UHGV virus genome: UHGV-1558646
DNA: 11,251 nt
DNA from: a virus
Strand: one strand, 5' to 3'
Part shown: positions 2,293-11,196 of the stretch, piece by piece
How the letters are laid out: every line of letters starts with the position of its first letter
Numbering within the stretch: the first letter of the stretch is position 1
Program-made: the position numbers and the translations under genes
The notes under the pieces: model-generated
Told to the model about the DNA's origin: nothing
Databases searched by the model: none
Seen by the model: only the letters and a program-made list of their open reading frames with translations

Positions 2293-2880
2293 TCAGAAAG
2301 AAGGGTAATCGTTCTGGCTGTAACCATAATCATCTGCATGATTCTGGCTTACGTTTTTAGAGCGATTGTCTTTATCTTTGAGATGGGCAACCATGTTGGT
2401 GATAGTTTCTGGTTGCTTGCCTTCTGCCTTTTCTTTAAGGGTTTGACCTGTTTGTGCAATAAACGGGATGCGTATTTCCATCTGATAGCTGTCTGCACCA
2501 GTCCTTTTGTTTGTGGTTAATACTTTCTGGAGCACTAACCCGATTTTCTTTCCATGAAATTCAGGTGCAACAAATTTACTGGCGGAAACCATATGTTGCG
2601 TTAACTGCTTAATCCCAACACACCCCATCATGGCATGAACGACATTTGCACCAAACTTGTTTTCCGTTCCGTCATTTTTCTGAACACAAACGCTAAGATA
2701 CTGGATTTTACGTCCGTCGTCGGATTCGCCAGAAAACTCAATAAATTTGGCTCCTTTTTCTGATTGCTTTAGTTCTGCTTCAGTAATGGTAATGATATGA
2801 GCGCCAGTTTCGTTAATAAAACCACCTTGCCCTGCGGTCAGTGCTGCTTCTTCGTTATAAGTAAAAATCACGTTGCTCAT
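2293..2880 (-). CDS. Sak4 partner protein, putative ssDNA-binding/accessory protein (195 aa) with acidic-aromatic C-terminal tail ...DDYGYSQNDYPSF
   Basis: ATG at 2880 overlaps the TGA of the upstream Sak4-like gene (ATGA). C-terminal tail is reminiscent of the SSB tip (DDDIPF). Assignment is by position and tail, not by recognised OB-fold motifs. Confidence 0.55.
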   Translation of the reverse strand: MSNVIFTYNEEAALTAGQGGFINETGAHIITITEAELKQSEKGAKFIEFSGESDDGRKIQYLSVCVQKNDGTENKFGANVVHAMMGCVGIKQLTQHMVSASKFVAPEFHGKKIGLVLQKVLTTNKRTGADSYQMEIRIPFIAQTGQTLKEKAEGKQPETITNMVAHLKDKDNRSKNVSQNHADDYGYSQNDYPSF

Positions 2881-3557
2881 GCGGCGTTTTCCTTAATTTG
2901 ATGAACATTATTGATGCCGTAGTAATCACAAACAGTGGCATCGACGAAAGAGAGATCGTTATCAATCTCATTGGAATCAAACATTCCCATTGGGGATTTA
3001 ACAGTGTCTGCACCGTTGTTTTTTGTAGTGAAAAAGAACTGGTCATCACGGGTAAGGGTGCGAAGAACTATAGTAAACATGCCTTCGACAGTGATTTTCT
3101 CGTCCAGCATTTTGCCGATAGTTTTCATTTTCACACGCCCCATAGGGGTTTCTTCGGTGTGTGCAAGAAAATAGACTCTCAGGTCATCAGGTGCATCCTG
3201 TGCAGCCTTAATCACCTCCCATGCGTGGCGGCCTATCTCAGTGAATTTATCAAACGATTTTTCTTCTGAGCGGCGCATAAACTCATTGCTCATCACATAC
3301 TGGAAGTCATCAACAATAACGATTCTTTTCCCGTATTCGTGAGCACGCTTAATTACGGCAACTATTACGTCCCATTTGTCAGTGGTAACTACGGTTCCTT
3401 TTTTTGCTCTGGCATCCCATGCCAGCCATTCTTTTGATTTAAATGGTAGCGGCTTGCCTATTGGTTTTATAAGTATTGCTTCCTCTGGATTGATATTTCT
3501 CATGCTGGTTGATTTTCCGGTGCCAGATTCACCGAGTATTAATGTTGCAGTTCCCAT
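2877..3557 (-). CDS. Sak4-like core-only RecA-fold ATPase (AAA_24 family) recombination protein (226 aa)
   Basis: Walker A GESGTGKST at residues 8-16 and Walker B-like RIVIVDDF. Size and N-terminal P-loop are typical of phage Sak4/AAA_24. SD GAGGTGA before the ATG at 3557. Sits where lambda has the Red genes. Confidence 0.7.
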   Translation of the reverse strand: MGTATLILGESGTGKSTSMRNINPEEAILIKPIGKPLPFKSKEWLAWDARAKKGTVVTTDKWDVIVAVIKRAHEYGKRIVIVDDFQYVMSNEFMRRSEEKSFDKFTEIGRHAWEVIKAAQDAPDDLRVYFLAHTEETPMGRVKMKTIGKMLDEKITVEGMFTIVLRTLTRDDQFFFTTKNNGADTVKSPMGMFDSNEIDNDLSFVDATVCDYYGINNVHQIKENAA

Positions 3558-3565
3558 AATTCACC

Positions 3566-3754
3566 TCAGAATGGTAATTCGGATGAGGAGGAAAGAAACT
3601 CGCGCTCATTCATGCGCTCTCTTTGCGCCTGCCATAAGCAAAGTTGTTTCTTTGATTTATCTCCCGCTTTACGCCAGTAACGAGCCTCAGCAATGTGATA
3701 TTCTCTTTTTAATCGACTTAACTCTGGAGTTTTCGCCAGTTCTACCGGAATCAT
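3566..3754 (-). CDS. Small basic hypothetical protein (62 aa)
   Basis: ATG at 3754 overlaps the kil TGA (ATGA), with SD GGAGG 5 nt upstream. Translation: MIPVELAKTPELSRLKREYHIAEARYWRKAGDKSKKQLCLWQAQRERMNEREFLSSSSELPF. The ORF-track start at 3766 is in frame but lacks an SD. Confidence 0.5.
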   Translation of the reverse strand: MIPVELAKTPELSRLKREYHIAEARYWRKAGDKSKKQLCLWQAQRERMNEREFLSSSSELPF

Positions 3755-3864
3755 TTTGACCTCCATTTCCTGTAGGCTTCGACGGCCTCACGAAACATCT
3801 TTTCATCACCAATAAAAGTGGCGATAGTGAATTTAGTCTGGATAGCCATAAGTGTTTTATCCAT
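3751..3864 (-). CDS. kil: Kil-like host cell-division inhibitor peptide (37 aa)
   Basis: Translation MDKTLMAIQTKFTIATFIGDEKMFREAVEAYRKWRSK closely matches the lambda Kil N-terminus as I recall it (MDQTLMAIQTKFTIATFIGDEKMFREAVDAYKKW...). ATG at 3864 with SD AGGAG. Overlaps the end of cIII as in lambda. Confidence 0.6.
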   Translation of the reverse strand: MDKTLMAIQTKFTIATFIGDEKMFREAVEAYRKWRSK

Positions 3865-3997
3865 TTTTGGGAACTCCTGGCTGATTAAGTATGTCGATAA
3901 GGCGTTTCCATCCGTCACGTAATTTACGGGTGATTCGTTCAAGTAAAGATTCGGAAGGGCAGCCAGCAACAGGCCACCCTGCAATGGCATATTGCAT
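3857..3997 (-). CDS. cIII: cIII (46 aa), anti-FtsH regulator of cII stability
   Basis: Read by hand in a frame absent from the ORF track: MQYAIAGWPVAGCPSESLLERITRKLRDGWKRLIDILNQPGVPKNG. This matches lambda CIII (recalled) over its first 46 residues. SD TAAGGAG 6 nt upstream of the ATG at 3997. Confidence 0.65.
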   Translation of the reverse strand: MQYAIAGWPVAGCPSESLLERITRKLRDGWKRLIDILNQPGVPKNG

Positions 3998-4061
3998 GGT
4001 GTGCTCCTTATTTATTTACACATAACGAAAACGCCTCTAGTGAAGCGTTATTGGTATGCAT

Positions 4062-4087
4062 ATAAAAAAGCCCTCACATTGGAGGGC
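4062..4087 (-). terminator. Intrinsic terminator-like hairpin, leftward transcript (tL-like)
   Basis: Minus strand reads GCCCTC-caatgt-GAGGGC followed by TTTTTTATA. Stem at plus 4070..4075 and 4082..4087; T-run is the complement of 4064..4069. Confidence 0.5.
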
Positions 4088-4149
4088 AAAGAAGATTTCC
4101 AATAATCAGAGCAAGTCGGCTCCTGTTTAGTTACGAGCGACATTGCTCC

Positions 4150-4177
4150 GTGTATTCACTCGTTGGAATGAATACAC
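4150..4177. repeat. 9-bp inverted repeat GTGTATTCA-N10-TGAATACAC
   Basis: Perfect 9-bp arms at 4150..4158 and 4169..4177 in the intergenic region between the 207-aa gene and cIII. Possible protein-binding site or RNA hairpin. Confidence 0.4.
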
Positions 4178-4204
4178 AGTGCAGTGTTTATTCTGTTGTT
4201 TATG

Positions 4205-4231
4205 CCAAAAATAAAGGCCGATTATGCGGCC
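4205..4231 (-). terminator. Intrinsic terminator-like hairpin directly after the 207-aa gene
   Basis: Minus strand reads GGCCGCATAATCGGCC followed by TTTATTTTTGG. Stem overlaps the TAA stop at 4222..4224. Confidence 0.5.
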
Positions 4232-4845
4232 TCGGAAGGAAGTCCAATCATCTTATTCAAATCTTCTACCCGTAAAGCAGGAAGTGCTGTACTTGCTTTA
4301 TCTGCTTCTTTTGGTAGCAATTCTTTGCTTTCAGGCCAAACTTCAATAAGTCGCTTAACTGTTGTGACTGATTTCAAAGCAGCCCATACATTTGATTCGA
4401 TATCCTTTTTCTTGGCTTCAAGTTTTTGTTGCAATGCGCAGATTTCATCAAACCTTTTTGTTATTTCGTGTTCTGCGTCAAACATGCATTTATCTTTGAT
4501 CGGAGTAGGGAGCAATATATCTTTGCCGTTGCCGTCTTCCCCATATGAATGCCATCCAACCCTTCTGCCAGATACAGTCAGATAAATTGAAGTAGAACTA
4601 ACATCGTATGAGTAAAATGAACATCCCATCTTTCCAAGTTCTTCACTTATAGCTACCAACTTGGATGATAACTGATCCACTTCCTCAGTTTTCTTTTTAC
4701 CGCCAAACGCAATAACTCTGGCGTCAAGTGCAAGCTGGTTCTTTAACTTTGTTACTTCTTCAAGTTCAGTGAACACCCCGGACTTAATTAAAGCGTTACG
4801 AGCGATTTCCTCTTTCATTCTCGTAGTTAAGCGGATTGATGACAT
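4222..4845 (-). CDS. Hypothetical protein of unknown function (207 aa), AT-rich
   Basis: ATG at 4845 with SD GAGAGGAA 5 nt upstream. The ORF-track start at 4905 is a TTG overlapping the N stop. Translation starts MSSIRLTTRMKEEIARNALIKSG. No recognisable motif. Composition is visibly more AT-rich than the flanking genes. Confidence 0.6.
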   Translation of the reverse strand: MSSIRLTTRMKEEIARNALIKSGVFTELEEVTKLKNQLALDARVIAFGGKKKTEEVDQLSSKLVAISEELGKMGCSFYSYDVSSTSIYLTVSGRRVGWHSYGEDGNGKDILLPTPIKDKCMFDAEHEITKRFDEICALQQKLEAKKKDIESNVWAALKSVTTVKRLIEVWPESKELLPKEADKASTALPALRVEDLNKMIGLPSEAA

Positions 4846-4906
4846 ATTAATTCCTCTCAAATAAGTGGTTTGCTGCCTAATTTCATTTTCTGGCGACCAA
4901 CACAAG

Positions 4907-5290
4907 TCACCTCGCCGTCAGTTGTTTGTATTTCCGGTAGCCTGCCGCGTAAATGGCTACGTTTGGAAGACATACACCAGTTTCTGGTTGCTTATGTCCA
5001 AACTCATTCGCGTACACAATGGCTGCTCGCTCCAGATTGCGTCTGTATTCTTTCTGTTGCCAGATCACGTCCTGTGCCATGAACTTAATTGGCTTAGCGT
5101 CTTCTATGCGCTCAGGCGTTTCGTGAGTACCTTTAGCCTGAATCTGCGCTCTGCTTAGAGTAGGGCGGTGTAATACTTCTGAACTTATTGCTTCTTCGCG
5201 GGCCAGCACGCCGTTAGCTAATGCCTTTGCCTTTAAACGCTCACGACGACGAGAACGTGAATTGCCTTTGAACTGAGTTCTGCGTGTCAT
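4907..5290 (-). CDS. N: N-type transcription antitermination protein, P22 gene 24-like (127 aa)
   Basis: N-terminal arginine-rich motif GNSRSRRRERLKAKALA and C-terminus LPNVAIYAAGYRKYKQLTAR resemble P22 N as I recall it. ATG at 5290 with SD AGGAGG at 6-nt spacing; the ORF-track start at 5356 lacks an SD. nutL boxB lies upstream. Confidence 0.7.
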   Translation of the reverse strand: MTRRTQFKGNSRSRRRERLKAKALANGVLAREEAISSEVLHRPTLSRAQIQAKGTHETPERIEDAKPIKFMAQDVIWQQKEYRRNLERAAIVYANEFGHKQPETGVCLPNVAIYAAGYRKYKQLTAR

Positions 5291-5419
5291 ATGGAACCTC
5301 CTGATGAACTTTGGCGGTGAATACAGCCGGGCGACTAACTCCGGTCGCGTAATCATTGCAAAGCGCCTCCGCCGAGAAGGTTAGCTTCTGCATTCACCCC
5401 AAAGTTCACTTTGGTTATT

Positions 5420-5756: not shown

Positions 5757-6782
5757 TTACGGGCGAGTGATGGTTGATGCGTTTCCGTTTTCTATTACAC
5801 CTGCTCGTATCGTGTAGCTTCCCAAGATTTTTACTGTCCTGTTTTCTTTCATTGCATCAAACAGTATGGCGATCTCGTCTTTATCATCTATGAACGACGT
5901 GTCCACCGAAACAGGGAAACTGTCTTCACTAGATGGTTCGCGGCAGCTTAGGGTTATCTTTTCCGCAGTACGCTTGATTCCATCAATGACTAATTCAAGG
6001 TTTCTTTCTTCTTTTTTTGCTTTTTCGATAGGGTTCTTGATTAGTTCGTGGATTTCTTTGTTAGACAGTTCAACTGTGCTTGCGCCTGATATGACAATTT
6101 TGTCAGCATCAGACGCGCCTTTTAATACCCCTGTATACGCTTTTGCAGTATGCTCTTGAATCCCTTCGGCGCGCTCTACTGCATCTATGCCCGCTTTAGC
6201 TCTAATCGCCTCAAGCATTCCGTCCCTTAATATCGTCATGCGCTCGTTTTCTGATTTAATCTTGGCTTCTTCGAGCTTTGTTTCTTCTTGCTTGACTTCT
6301 ACTTCGGCTTTTTTCTCTAAGTATGATGTACCAACCCATGCACCGCCTATAACGGTGACAGCAAACAAGAAGCATAATGTTTTTTGGCTAGGACTCATAC
6401 CGTGTGTTACCTTCTCAAAGGCTTTACCGAATGCTTCAAAAAGCTCTGTTAATGCAGCAAGTATATCAGTACAACCTTCATTAATGGTAAAGATGATCTC
6501 TGCTTCCTCTTTATCTTTACCAGTTAACCTTTGAAGGTTGTCAGTTTTATATTTTATTAGTGTGAAAACTTTATAAATTTCAGTCTGAAATTCGCATAAA
6601 CCCTGAGCTAGAGGAGATGGAAGCGTTCCGTTGTAGCGAGAAGGATCACCATAAATCTTAAAATTCACATTATTGAAGAGGTCTAACTTGATCCTGTCGA
6701 TAGTGATCTCTTCGCCACCATCTAACCTTGCAAACAAAGATTCAATGTCGTCCAGACTTGAAACATTAATAATATCTTTCAT
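5757..6782 (-). CDS. Unknown membrane-anchored coiled-coil protein (341 aa) in the rexAB-equivalent slot; candidate exclusion/abortive-infection gene
   Basis: ORF track 5757..6782. ATG at 6782 with SD GAAGGTG. One predicted TM helix (TLCFLFAVTVIGGAWVGTSYL, about residues 136-156) followed by a K/E-rich coiled-coil. AT-rich relative to the repressor and replication genes. 80 bp downstream of the repressor stop on the same strand. Confidence 0.7.
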   Translation of the reverse strand: MKDIINVSSLDDIESLFARLDGGEEITIDRIKLDLFNNVNFKIYGDPSRYNGTLPSPLAQGLCEFQTEIYKVFTLIKYKTDNLQRLTGKDKEEAEIIFTINEGCTDILAALTELFEAFGKAFEKVTHGMSPSQKTLCFLFAVTVIGGAWVGTSYLEKKAEVEVKQEETKLEEAKIKSENERMTILRDGMLEAIRAKAGIDAVERAEGIQEHTAKAYTGVLKGASDADKIVISGASTVELSNKEIHELIKNPIEKAKKEERNLELVIDGIKRTAEKITLSCREPSSEDSFPVSVDTSFIDDKDEIAILFDAMKENRTVKILGSYTIRAGVIENGNASTITRP

Positions 6783-6862: not shown

Positions 6863-7570
6863 TCACGAACTTTTCAGCCACTCCCTTGCCTCGATGTCAT
6901 CCAGATGGCGAGATTGCTTCAGAATACCAGCCACATACTCCACCTTTGCTACTTGATGATAAGGCAACGTTATTGGCCTGTGGTCTTGGTTGATGCTTGT
7001 AAATTGGTATTCTCCATCTCTGTCATAGCCAAGAACCTTAATCATGTTGTGTCCTTCAACGGTTCTGACAAACACCTCATCACCCGGGAATACTTTGGTG
7101 TTAGGCTCAATGAGTACATATTCTCCTGATTTTATTCTGGGCCACATGCTGTCTCCTTTCACACGAAGGCCAAAGGCATCTGGATCATCGCTATAAATTT
7201 TGAGCCACCCATCGCGCTCTTCGGTCATCTCGATGGCACCATCAACACCAAGAATTGCCTCACCAACCACGCGCACTAACCCTTTTTTTAATTTGCCAAC
7301 AAATGAAAGAGTATCTTCATCATTCGCTCCATTTAACGAAGTGCCGTGCTGAAGCCAAACAACATCAACGTTTAGAAATTTCGCAAGCGCATTCATTTTT
7401 TCCTGACGCGGTAAAGACTCAGCATTAAACCATTTGCTAACGCCTTTGGACGAAAGAGAAAGGGCACGGGCTATAGCCATTCCCCTACCATGTTCATCAA
7501 GACCAGCTTCTTTACAGGCTTGCGCTAGCCGCTGGGCGAATTCTTTGCGCACTTTTTCATTCTGAACCAT
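6863..7570 (-). CDS. cI: Prophage repressor, cI-type (N-terminal HTH plus C-terminal S24 LexA-like autopeptidase, 235 aa)
   Basis: S24 signature VKGDSMWPRIKSGEYVLIEP...GDEVFV with a downstream Lys (NMIKVL). N-terminal HTH-like segment. Divergent from cro across a 78-bp operator region. Not a lambda cI or P22 c2 sequence match. Confidence 0.85.
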   Translation of the reverse strand: MVQNEKVRKEFAQRLAQACKEAGLDEHGRGMAIARALSLSSKGVSKWFNAESLPRQEKMNALAKFLNVDVVWLQHGTSLNGANDEDTLSFVGKLKKGLVRVVGEAILGVDGAIEMTEERDGWLKIYSDDPDAFGLRVKGDSMWPRIKSGEYVLIEPNTKVFPGDEVFVRTVEGHNMIKVLGYDRDGEYQFTSINQDHRPITLPYHQVAKVEYVAGILKQSRHLDDIEAREWLKSS

Positions 7571-8333: not shown

Positions 8334-8477
8334 ATGCGAAAAACGCAGGAAAATAAACGCGTTAATCACCGAAAAGATGTGCTACGTGACCAGTTTTATC
8401 AGGGAGTTAATCCAGCAATAGCTGTGCCACTGAGAGAAATACTTAACAGGTACAAAACTTCGGAGAAGTCAAAATGA
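8334..8477 (+). CDS. Small basic hypothetical protein (47 aa)
   Basis: ATG at 8334 with SD GAGG at 7-nt spacing. TGA overlaps the ATG of the replication initiator (ATGA). The ORF-track version (8169..8477) overlaps cII in another frame, so the internal start is preferred. Confidence 0.4.
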   Translation: MRKTQENKRVNHRKDVLRDQFYQGVNPAIAVPLREILNRYKTSEKSK

Positions 8478-9205
8478 GCATGAATCTTATGGCTAAGGCC
8501 ATGAATATAAAGGTTGGCAACCCACTGAGAAAACTGGTTCTGATTAAACTTGCCGATAACGCCAATGATAATGGCGAATGCTGGCCTTCATATCAACATG
8601 TCGCTGACCAGTGTGAGGTGAGCAGATCGACAGTAAAAAGTCACATTAGGGCACTGGAAGAGATGGGTCTTTTGAAAAGGGAATGCAGAAGAAAAGGAGA
8701 GCTTAACCAGTCAAACGTTTTTTATCTGACGCTGGATAATGCACAACAAATCCCACCAGAATCAGGTGGGGCAGGAGCTGCCCCCAGAACCTATCACTCT
8801 TTTGAACCAGTCAATGAACCTAAAAACATTATGTTCGAACATGTCCGAACGGAGTGGGAAAAAACTCCTGACCGTCACGAAGAAACCGACAAGGCATTCG
8901 AGGAAATATTCTGGTGTGCAGGCATGCGGAAAGCCGGGAAGAAAAACGCAGCTTCAGCATTCAGAACACAGTTCAGGGAATGGCGTAAAACTACCAGGGG
9001 TACGGCAAGCGAGTTTGCCACGATGCTGGCAGAAGACATCGCATGCAGGAATGGTAAGCAGTTCGGATTCGACAGGTTGTTACCATCGAGCTACCTGAAC
9101 GGTCAACGCTGGAACGACGAGAAGCCAGAAACTATTCAACCACAATCCAAACCATCATCCGCAATCACCGTATCGAAAACTGGCTACGTGTTTTTCGACA
9201 GGTGA
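8474..9205 (+). CDS. Replication initiator / replisome organiser, O-like, with N-terminal HTH (243 aa)
   Basis: N-terminal LVLIKLADNANDNGECWPSYQHVADQCEVSRSTVKSHIRALEEMGLL resembles the HTH domain of phage replication initiators. Low-complexity linker PPESGGAGAAP. Located in the lambda O position. Confidence 0.7.
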   Translation: MSMNLMAKAMNIKVGNPLRKLVLIKLADNANDNGECWPSYQHVADQCEVSRSTVKSHIRALEEMGLLKRECRRKGELNQSNVFYLTLDNAQQIPPESGGAGAAPRTYHSFEPVNEPKNIMFEHVRTEWEKTPDRHEETDKAFEEIFWCAGMRKAGKKNAASAFRTQFREWRKTTRGTASEFATMLAEDIACRNGKQFGFDRLLPSSYLNGQRWNDEKPETIQPQSKPSSAITVSKTGYVFFDR

Positions 9206-9208
9206 ACC

Positions 9209-9316
9209 ATGAAATCCAGAATCAAATCGTTACTTATCGCTGGCTATAACCATGGCTGGCTTAGTTCTGCATTCGTTGAGTTCTGGTTTAACCGTCTCGA
9301 TCTGAGGTCAGCGTAA
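9209..9316 (+). CDS. Possible small ORF (35 aa) between the initiator and the primase
   Basis: ATG at 9209 follows AGGTGA. Translation MKSRIKSLLIAGYNHGWLSSAFVEFWFNRLDLRSA. Its TAA overlaps the primase ATG (TAATG). Below the ORF-track size cutoff. Confidence 0.3.
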   Translation: MKSRIKSLLIAGYNHGWLSSAFVEFWFNRLDLRSA

Positions 9317-11196
9317 TGACTCCAAGTGAACTGAGCGACCTGCTTTGGGCGCAGGTTGACAGGGTGGCTCCGCACCTGTTGCCAAACGGCAAGAAAGAGG
9401 GGCATGAGTGGGTTGCCGGTAACGTTAACGGTGACAAGGGAAACAGCCTTAAGGTCAACCTTAGCGGCAAGAAAAAATGGGCTGATTTCGCTGAGGGAGA
9501 CGGCGGTGACATGCTTGATTTGTGGATGGCATGTCGTGGAATTAACCTGCATCAGGCTATGCAGGAAGCGAAAGCATTTCTCGGTATCAAGGATGACGAT
9601 CACCATTTCGATGCCAGACGTGAGAAGAAATTCTCCAGACCTGATCGCAAGAAAATCGCCAGTTACGTTACCAGAACAGAATCCCATCTTGAGTACCTGC
9701 AATCGCGTGGCATATCGCCAGAAGTCGTAAAGCGCTACGAGGTTGTCAGCGGCAAGGTGTGGAATGGAGAGCGGGAACTGGATGCTCTGGTGCTTCCGTA
9801 CAAACGCGATGGTGAGTTGTTGCAGGTCAAGCGAATCAGCACTGAGCGCCCGGACGGGAAGAAAGTCATTATGGCAGAAGGTGATTGCGAACCTTGTCTG
9901 TTCGGATGGCAGGCTCTGGACGCTGGCGTGAGGGCGGTTGTACTTTGCGAAGGCGAAATTGATTGTATGAGCTATGCGCAATACGGCATCTCGGCGTTAT
10001 CCGTGCCGTTTGGTGGCGGGAAAGGCGCTAAGCAGCAGTGGATTGAGTTTGAGTATCACAACCTCGACAGGTTTGAGGAAATATTCATCTCGATGGATGT
10101 TGATGATGTTGGTCGTGAAGCCGCAAGGGAAATCGCAAGCCGACTCGGTGAACATCGTTGCCGTCTTGTTACTCTGCCGTACAAAGACATCAACGAATGC
10201 CTGATGAACGGTGTTACCGAGGATGAAATCTGGCAGTACATCGGCACGGCATCCTACTTCGATCCTGAAGAACTCTACAGCGCGCGAGAGTTTTACCAGG
10301 ACACTATCAACGCTTTCTACGGCAAGCAGCAGTATCTGTTTAATCCACCGTGGGAATCTCTGGCAGATAAATTCCAGTTCCGTGAGGCCGAGTTGACGCT
10401 GGTCAATGGTGTGAACGGTCACGGAAAAACGGAGGTTGTCGGGCATATGGCACTTGAGGCAATGCGTCAGGGTGTGAAGACGTGCATCGCGTCACTTGAG
10501 CTGAAGCCTGGTATTCTCCTTAAGCGCCTTACCCGTCAGGCGACGTGCTGCAAGATGCCGCCAGTGCTGGAAATTGACTCTGCATTTAAATTTTATGACG
10601 AAAGACTTTGGGTGTTTGGCCTGACCGGAACGGCGAAAGCCGACAGGCTGATCGAAATATTCGACTACGCTCGCCGCCGATACGGTATCCAGTTATTCAT
10701 CATCGACAGCCTGATGAAATGTGGCATAGGCGACGATGACTATAACGGGCAGAAGGCGTTTGTTGACTCGATTTGCGACTTCAAAAACAAAACAAACTCC
10801 CACGTCATTCTCGTTACTCACTCGCGAAAAGGAGACAGCGAAGAAAAACCAACCGGGAAAATGGACGTAAAAGGCTCTGGAGCGATAACAGACCTGACAG
10901 ACAACCTTTTTATCATCTGGCGTAACAAGGCTCGCGAGAGAGCGTTACAGAGAGTTCAAAGCGGTGAACAGATGTCAGAGAAGGACGAACAGCTACTGGT
11001 GTCTCCGGCATCTGTTTTGTTGCTTGAAAAACAACGTAACGGTGAAGGTTGGGAAGGTGGTATCCCGTTGTTCCTTGACGAGCAATCGCACCAGTTCCTG
11101 CAACTTGAATCAGGATCTCCATATAGCTACATCGCCAATATGCCGAAATCGGAATATGACGAGGCGTGGAGACAGGAAAACGTGACGGAGTATTAA
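9316..11196 (+). CDS. Bifunctional DNA primase (TOPRIM) / RecA-fold DnaB-like replicative helicase (626 aa)
   Basis: TOPRIM motifs VVLCEGEIDCMSYAQ (catalytic Glu) and ISMDVDDVGREA (DxD). Helicase Walker A NGVNGHGKTEV and Walker B LFIIDSLMK. SD GAGGT before the ATG at 9316. Confidence 0.85.
   Translation: MTPSELSDLLWAQVDRVAPHLLPNGKKEGHEWVAGNVNGDKGNSLKVNLSGKKKWADFAEGDGGDMLDLWMACRGINLHQAMQEAKAFLGIKDDDHHFDARREKKFSRPDRKKIASYVTRTESHLEYLQSRGISPEVVKRYEVVSGKVWNGERELDALVLPYKRDGELLQVKRISTERPDGKKVIMAEGDCEPCLFGWQALDAGVRAVVLCEGEIDCMSYAQYGISALSVPFGGGKGAKQQWIEFEYHNLDRFEEIFISMDVDDVGREAAREIASRLGEHRCRLVTLPYKDINECLMNGVTEDEIWQYIGTASYFDPEELYSAREFYQDTINAFYGKQQYLFNPPWESLADKFQFREAELTLVNGVNGHGKTEVVGHMALEAMRQGVKTCIASLELKPGILLKRLTRQATCCKMPPVLEIDSAFKFYDERLWVFGLTGTAKADRLIEIFDYARRRYGIQLFIIDSLMKCGIGDDDYNGQKAFVDSICDFKNKTNSHVILVTHSRKGDSEEKPTGKMDVKGSGAITDLTDNLFIIWRNKARERALQRVQSGEQMSEKDEQLLVSPASVLLLEKQRNGEGWEGGIPLFLDEQSHQFLQLESGSPYSYIANMPKSEYDEAWRQENVTEY

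Follow-up and report, generated by a model that had tools for sequence, protein, structure and literature searches.

A gene in the window (the whole 11,251-nucleotide stretch of DNA analysed here, from virus genome UHGV-1558646) encodes a single-chain protein in which a TOPRIM primase is fused to a RecA-fold SF4 helicase, as in T7 gp4 and Twinkle. Based on structure prediction and sequence alignment, the N-terminus of this protein is predicted to be homologous to the DnaG-type zinc-binding domain (ZBD) but zinc-less, with the fold kept and the four zinc ligands lost. It is probable, at roughly 70%, that the protein is a functional gp4-like primase-helicase that is recruited by an O-like initiator, unwinds and primes DNA on its own and leaves extension to the host Pol III, and that its zinc-free ZBD retains a role in handling the template and the primer. 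The module to which the gene belongs has already been annotated and described. What is corrected here is the status of O, which is retained, and the nature of the primase-helicase N-terminus. The window corresponds to a lambdoid early region, with genes for a Sak4-like annealase, SSB, N and cI, cro, cII, the O-like initiator and the primase-helicase, and the features considered below are as follows:

6863-7570, minus strand: N and cI
8474..9205, plus strand: O-like replication initiator of 243 aa, with an N-terminal winged-HTH and a C-terminal domain (PHROG 270/4617/8540/391, Pfam HTH_36)
8765..8783, plus strand: candidate iteron within the O linker, the 19-bp dyad-symmetric GGTGGGGCAGGAGCTGCCC (one match at a tolerance of 3 mismatches)
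9209..9316, plus strand: micro-ORF of 35 aa, its stop overlapping the primase-helicase ATG (TAATG) (sequence, phrog_21848)
9316..11196, plus strand: primase-helicase gene, 626 aa plus stop (ORF list and translation, PHROG 239, T7 gp4 and Twinkle matches, AF2)
9316..9591, plus strand: zinc-less ZBD-like domain, aa 1-92, predicted as two helices, a five-strand ribbon and two helices (AF2, Foldseek, alignment)
9592..9675, plus strand: charged, flexible linker, aa 93-120 (pLDDT dip to 66-80, gappy alignment)
9676..10245, plus strand: DnaG-type RNA-polymerase domain, aa 121-310 (Toprim_2, T7 alignment, family conservation)
9940-10203, plus strand: TOPRIM, aa 209-296 (Pfam Toprim_2, E 3e-12)
10351..11115, plus strand: SF4 RecA-type helicase domain, aa 346-600 (AAA_25, DnaB_C, T7 alignment)
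10408-10431, plus strand: Walker A, aa 365-372 (G365-VNGHG-K371-T372)

According to the ORF list and its translation, the primase-helicase gene is an intact plus-strand ORF of 626 codons with an ATG start, exactly as delimited in the first-pass annotation. A PHROGs search revealed that PHROG 239 ('DNA primase/helicase') covers residues 2-622 of the product (E 1e-170). The nearest structures by sequence are those of T7 gp4 (5IKN, 6N7I and 1Q57; E ~1e-23, residues 192-539), and Twinkle structures (8E2L, 7T8B) are also matched (E 7e-14). The full-length AF2 model has a pLDDT of 93.4, and its best Foldseek hit is 5ikn_J (E 4e-27; TM 0.58/0.74). The hits are ordered T7 gp4 (5IKN/1Q57/6N9x), then Twinkle, then DnaB, with E of ~1e-27 to 1e-24 for the leading T7 gp4 and Twinkle matches, and together AF2 and Foldseek give the overall fold of gp4 with both domains in one chain. 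The domain search that the first-pass annotation had proposed returned Toprim_2 and AAA_25 above their cut-offs, the latter just over it (residues 357-507, E 2e-6), DnaB_C under its cut-off (residues 355-578), and none of the zinc-ribbon models above threshold. The earlier proposal of a RecA-fold helicase with Walker A/B motifs, fused to a TOPRIM primase, is thus supported by Pfam, by PHROG and by the T7 gp4 matches.

The likeness to T7 gp4 (gp4A; 1Q57, 5IKN, 6N7I), the best fold match, extends to the order of the domains within one chain (ZBD-like domain, linker, RNA-polymerase/TOPRIM, linker helix, SF4 helicase) and to all catalytic residues, which the two proteins have in common. In the alignment to T7 gp4, the TOPRIM acidic metal ligands E157/D207/D209/D237 of T7 correspond to E212/D261/D263/D291, and the helicase motif residues K318/E343/D424/H465 correspond to K371/E395/D464/H502, D464 being Walker B and the histidine the histidine sensor. 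Two further correspondences were drawn by inspection: R131 was matched to T7 R84 through the common RGIS motif, and K572 and R574 of the KQRNG motif were matched to the T7 arginine finger, in both cases by eye and, for the arginine finger, not by computed alignment. In T7, DNA loading and the two enzymatic activities all require R84 (PMC9198812). A TOPRIM polymerase domain with its acidic metal ligands is therefore joined here to an SF4 helicase with Walker A/B motifs, as in the T7 gp4/Twinkle type. In a family alignment of 66 full-length representatives, 27-60% identical to the query across the whole protein, residues R131, E212, G213, D263 and D291 are invariant, and conservation is 90% or higher at K172, D261, K371, E395, D464, H502, K572 and R574. 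That relatives this divergent have retained the catalytic residues indicates that catalysis is under selection. The C-terminal tail (…EYDEAWRQENVTEY), which is acidic and aromatic, was also considered as a polymerase-binding tail like that of T7 gp4, a candidate that was dropped for want of conservation among the relatives.

Cysteines are found at positions 73, 191, 194, 211, 217, 282, 295, 390, 411, 412, 469 and 487 of the primase-helicase, and C73 is indeed the only one within the first 90 residues, as had been pointed out from the sequence. A lone cysteine in 90 residues is not unusual, because cysteine makes up 1.9% of the protein overall and about 1.7 would be expected. What matters is not this count, but the absence of Cys and His from all four zinc-ligand positions of the N-terminal domain. 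For the mapping of these positions, a filter-free hmmsearch and a profile alignment were used, in which E. coli DnaG 42-98 corresponds to family positions 37-96. The zinc ligands of E. coli DnaG, which we take to be C40/H43/C61/C64 (the CPFH…CFGC motif), fall on G35/N38/D57/E60, with C40, which lies outside the aligned block, placed by ungapped extension. Among 67 sequences, Cys occurs in none at positions 35, 38 and 57 and in one at position 60, and the N-terminal ~110 residues contain no conserved Cys column in the alignment of the 66 relatives. The first-pass annotation was accordingly right about the absence of a Cys4 zinc-ribbon, and the CHC2 site is missing too; the Pfam model Prim_Zn_Ribbon finds no match in the primase-helicase.

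The kinship of this N-terminus to the DnaG ZBD is suggested by the fold search, by the filter-free hmmsearch against E. coli DnaG and by weak Pfam matches. The AF2 model of residues 1-112 has a pLDDT of 89, and Foldseek places two DnaG ZBDs, 1d0q_A and 2au3, at the head of its PDB matches, each with a probability of 1.0. Over 95 columns, the TM-scores of the model against 1D0Q (Bacillus stearothermophilus DnaG) are 0.59/0.64; 2AU3 is the DnaG of Aquifex, and human Twinkle (TMq 0.42) and T4 gp61 rank lower among the matches. The Pfam model Zn_ribbon_DnaG (PF01807) scores 13.1 bits on the N-terminus, which is under the cut-off of 24.9 (E 0.089), yet this sub-threshold match is colinear (26-92 against 26-92 of 98), and weak matches to the same model are found in 9 of 45 relatives. 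The NCBIfam model TIGR01391 (dnaG) matches residues 26-143 (E 1.8e-9), a stretch that takes in part of the polymerase domain. The N-terminal family alignment, used as a profile against PDB, gave chance matches only. The domain therefore shares with the DnaG ZBD (PF01807; 1D0Q, 2AU3) the predicted fold, a colinear alignment and a common G-D/N motif before the first helix, and differs from it in the lack of zinc ligands and in an HMM score under the Pfam threshold; moreover, DnaG carries a DnaB-binding C-terminal domain, whereas the ZBD-like domain here is fused to a helicase. It also differs from the Cys4 zinc ribbon of T7 gp4, both in its ligand positions and in its resemblance to the DnaG CHC2 domain, a larger unit than the short ribbon of T7.

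Within the N-terminal domain, P23, G25, G42 and D57 are invariant in the 66 relatives and W32, W55 and F58 reach a conservation of 90% or more; with G35, G39, S44, G64, D65 and L69, these are the residues that are invariant or nearly so, and the N-terminus therefore appears to be a conserved domain and not a decayed one. With residues 1-150 as the query, a full-library search returned 2780 clusters (50% identity) at E<=1e-3, of which 662 were found at E<=1e-10. Judging from these alignments, the zinc-less state appears to be family-wide and strongly conserved. The first-pass view of the N-terminus as a missing or unusual domain was not upheld: AF2, Foldseek and the alignment point to a well-folded, conserved, zinc-less homologue of the DnaG-type ZBD. 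Literature searches brought up genome-annotation statements and the Twinkle precedent only, and no paper that notes a zinc-less ZBD in this family.

That precedent bears directly on how the protein may work. The zinc motif of T7 gp4 is held to be critical for DNA binding and for sequence-specific primer synthesis, while metazoan Twinkle (7T8B, 8E2L), the one other known zinc-less relative, combines a gp4-like architecture with a ZBD-like N-terminus that has no zinc ligands and no cysteines, and it has no primase activity (PMC3610141). The ZBD-like domain of Twinkle regulates loading and unwinding via DNA contacts (PMC12214949). By analogy, the protein could be only a helicase in practice, with a zinc-less N-terminus that serves loading or the regulation of speed, and with primers supplied by host DnaG or by pR transcription. 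The appearance of human Twinkle among the N-terminal fold matches agrees with this, as does the cooperation of the P22 gp12 helicase with host DnaG, as cited from Wickner (1984) in PMC8022706. Metazoan Twinkle, however, has also lost the residues of primase motifs IV/V and does not prime, whereas the PHROG 239-type family keeps every TOPRIM ligand: there is no variation at E212, D263, D291 and R131, and conservation is 90% or more at D261 and K172. The full-length fold search, which gives the gp4 architecture, is a further argument against a protein reduced to unwinding. In addition, the primase-helicase has no DnaB-type N-terminal domain, the part of DnaB that docks DnaG. Altogether, it is unlikely that priming is left to the host.

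The primase-helicase gene is preceded by an O-like initiator (8474-9205), whose product matches PHROG 270, 4617, 8540 and 391, annotated as replication initiation or O-like, and contains Pfam HTH_36 at aa 17-67. The region from O to the end of the window holds only the micro-ORF and the primase-helicase, and no P-type DnaB loader. Hence, the first-pass contrast with a lambda O/P-type system holds in part: the P-type loader has been replaced, but since an O-like initiator is present upstream, the O function is kept and the P function alone is replaced. The module agrees with lambda O/P and P22 gp18/gp12 in its position after cII and in an O-like initiator whose gene may carry an iteron midway; the difference is that a primase-helicase fusion, in the slot of lambda P or of a P22 gp12-type helicase, stands here in place of a P-type loader or a DnaB-type helicase.

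In lambda, the N-terminus of O reads the iterons and its C-terminus contacts the loader or the helicase. Over the C-terminal ~125 aa, the O-like initiator and mEp043 O are identical, whereas they are unrelated at the N-terminus. A Proteus mirabilis prophage encodes a primase-helicase of 69% identity and an O protein with a C-terminal domain of 49% identity and yet another N-terminus. The co-occurrence of the O C-terminal half and the primase-helicase was judged by count and by organism breakdown: the primase-helicase and the 3' half of O (nt 348-732) each match 39 phage records, distributed identically over organisms. We infer that the C-terminal domain of O recruits the primase-helicase, which fits the lambda O precedent; the linkage could also be mere adjacency to a mosaic joint, with no physical interaction between the two proteins.

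The same co-occurrence raises the question of whether the zinc-less domain is itself the partner of O. The C-terminal domain of O always accompanies the primase-helicase gene, and the N-terminal domain sits on a flexible linker, as would suit a docking module for O or for the host replisome; priming would then be non-specific or be carried out by the RNA-polymerase domain alone. Against such a role, distant members with upstream genes unrelated to O, in one case for a 78-aa protein (weak Phage_zn_bind_3 match) and in another for a 253-aa protein (no Pfam match), conserve the N-terminal domain just as well, and the primase families phrog_510, phrog_47 and phrog_13004 align across the same N-terminal residues. 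Docking as the purpose of the domain is therefore quite improbable. Since it is kept beside genes other than O, its role is probably intrinsic to the primase and not O-specific.

In the linker of O, a single copy of the candidate 19-bp iteron is found, versus three tandem copies in Stx2a_F403. Besides this one element, only short two-copy repeats expected by chance were detected in and around the O-like gene, and no iteron array. The reduced number of copies might suggest a decaying remnant in a defective prophage, in which the loss of cysteines would be part of the decay. This can hardly be the case: the 626-codon ORF is intact and 98% identical to the genes of mEp043, Sf101 and Stx2a phages, the zinc-less state extends, as far as the alignments tell, over the whole family with conserved replacement residues, and the single-repeat O allele is also present in phage Stx2_16002. 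The reading as a pseudogene of a decayed prophage was rejected, as the conservation data contradict decay. The length of the O gene varies among Stx2a phages (732, 756, 777 and 861 bp).

The micro-ORF between O and the primase-helicase is kept as an ORF in SEN22, in mEp043 and in a Proteus prophage, and matches phrog_21848 (2e-28). It contains no cysteines, and therefore a zinc site in trans is not supplied by its product.

For the functional primase-helicase favoured here, the following course of events may be proposed. The O-like initiator would bind the origin via its variable N-terminal winged-helix domain, and its conserved C-terminal domain would recruit the phage's own hexameric SF4 helicase, replacing the route of lambda, in which protein P captures host DnaB. 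The helicase domain, as its architecture, catalytic residues and fold suggest, would unwind DNA 5'->3' with ATP, and the attached DnaG-type TOPRIM domain would make lagging-strand RNA primers for extension by host Pol III. The zinc-free N-terminal 92 residues, tethered by the linker, may still serve as a ZBD usually does, keeping the template and the primer in place at the active site and probably acting in trans in the hexamer, with the conserved Trp, Phe, Asp and Gly residues stabilising the fold in place of the metal. T7 supplies its own DNA polymerase, whereas lambdoid phages generally depend on host Pol III and no polymerase gene lies within the early-region window, so that the primer must pass to the host enzyme. 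A further difference from T7 is recruitment, which here presumably proceeds via the O-like initiator. As for the first-pass suggestions, it is reasonable to infer that replication does without host DnaB and DnaG, and priming-site recognition may be unusual as well; literature searches yielded no biochemical or genetic test of any member of the family, nor of its dependence on host DnaB or DnaG.

The combination of an intact TOPRIM centre with a predicted zinc-free ZBD fold amounts to a natural experiment on the part that the zinc site plays in template recognition by primases, and the family may be regarded as a bacterial counterpart of the zinc-less domain of human Twinkle. It is conceivable, if slightly short of an even bet, that a very large clade of prophage primase-helicases (at least 2780 clusters at 50% identity) primes in a template-directed and sequence-specific manner with a metal-free DnaG ZBD. 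In that case, bacterial-type priming would not need the zinc ion for its 'zinc finger' role, the enzymes of the family might read a different recognition sequence, and their primers would have to be transferred to host Pol III in the absence of DnaB and DnaG. What is left as novel is a biochemical question at the level of the family, namely how a metal-free ZBD supports priming. With a primase-helicase in place of P, the P-DnaB assumptions carried over from lambda into work on Stx-phage replication may not apply to phages with this module.

The gene itself is unexceptional: as a replication gene of lambda-like phages of E. coli and Salmonella it is abundant and has already been catalogued, and the zinc-less trait is not peculiar to one phage, as it marks a very large family. 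The succession of an O-like protein and a primase-helicase is known from the literature as the ES18 type (PMC10307801, PMC2629481), and the same module occurs in ES18, epsilon34 (gp50/gp51), STMP5/17, mEp043, Sf101 and the Stx2a phages Min27 and 24B; in the window, too, an O-like initiator is followed by the primase-helicase in the early right operon, and the primase-helicase gene has 87-99% DNA identity to these relatives. The primase-helicase gene is 97-99% identical at the DNA level in mEp043, Sf101, APC_JM3.2 and the Stx2a phages F403, F451, 24B, Min27 and Xuzhou21, and ~87% identical in Salmonella phages such as SEN22. Within this group, the copies of Stx2a phages carry an intein, which the present copy does not, and the present O has one 19-bp repeat and an N-terminal domain of the Stx2a type, not of the mEp043 type. 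The closest protein cluster, at 98% identity, comprises 5632 sequences, and the gene is common in E. coli prophages: the segment of O and primase-helicase has matches in 1715 of 5426 complete E. coli genomes, and in 285 of these 80% or more of the segment is matched. The near-identical genes are variously annotated as 'DNA primase/helicase', 'toprim domain-containing protein', 'replication protein' or 'P', and entries under the last three names in Stx2a and other lambdoid prophages are in fact gp4/Twinkle-type primase-helicases. The record of mEp043 remarks on similarity to ES18 gp61.

The primase-helicase gene of the window (9316-11196, plus strand) contains no intein, whereas the same gene is interrupted by one in the Stx2a phages F403, F451, 24B, Min27, Xuzhou21 and Stx2_16002. 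In these phages, a 342-aa in-frame insertion lies within the Walker A P-loop, with the boundaries GHGK|ACPL…VATHN|TEVV, and the corresponding empty site of the window is found at 10428/10429, between codons K371 and T372. A 342-aa P-loop insertion is also present in the same gene product of Cronobacter (P0012, 968 aa). The intein-bearing gene has these coordinates in phage F403:

F403 locus (L002) 2501-5407: intein-bearing primase-helicase gene of Stx2a phage F403

The insertion contains Hint and LAGLIDADG homing-endonuclease domains. Its first residue is not Cys, Ser or Thr but Ala, and its C-terminal end is THN, a combination that we take to recall class 3 inteins, making this the candidate class.

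An abrupt mosaic joint was located within the O-like replication initiator gene, at about position 8821 of the window (nt 348 of the gene). The sequence 3' of the joint is common to 39 phage records at 93-98% identity; 5' of it, the N-terminal DNA-binding domain is common to only 10 records, and the corresponding domain of mEp043-type phages is unrelated to that of the window. The linker of the O-like gene harbors a short repeat unit:

8765-8783: 19-bp dyad-symmetric element GGTGGGGCAGGAGCTGCCC

The window carries one copy of this element, while three copies are arranged in tandem in phage F403 (L002 1906-1966), where the repeated element gives rise to a GGAGAA peptide repeat in the O-like protein. 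Since the O-gene lengths of Stx2a phages differ (732, 756, 777 and 861 bp), the copy number of the element appears to be variable among them. The element is a candidate iteron.

A small reading frame follows the O-like gene and precedes the primase-helicase gene:

9209-9316, plus strand: 35-aa micro-ORF MKSRIKSLLIAGYNHGWLSSAFVEFWFNRLDLRSA

Its stop codon overlaps the primase-helicase ATG (TAATG). The micro-ORF is kept as an ORF in SEN22 and mEp043 (26 of 108 nt differ), as well as in a Proteus prophage, and matches phrog_21848, a family of unknown function; it is without annotation in the mEp043, SEN22 and F403 records. It is probably either a part of the replication module or a coupler of translation between the two flanking genes.

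In the locus of P0142 (606 aa), a distant, zinc-less member of the primase-helicase family, a small protein is encoded directly upstream:

L007 357-593: 78-aa protein with a weak Phage_zn_bind_3 match

Its coding region overlaps the start of P0142.

Outside the replication genes, the following were noted:

2293-3557, minus strand: Sak4-like annealase (226 aa) and SSB (195 aa), early-left recombination genes
5757-6782, minus strand: 341-aa ORF between N and cI, phrog_6191 (unknown function)

A serine/threonine kinase (stk), which may or may not correspond to the 341-aa ORF, is listed somewhere within the aligned region of the matching Stx2a phage records. The closest Stx2a phages have the immunity and replication region in common with the window, and Bet/Exo occupy the position of its Sak4-like annealase and SSB, which is a further mosaic difference between them.
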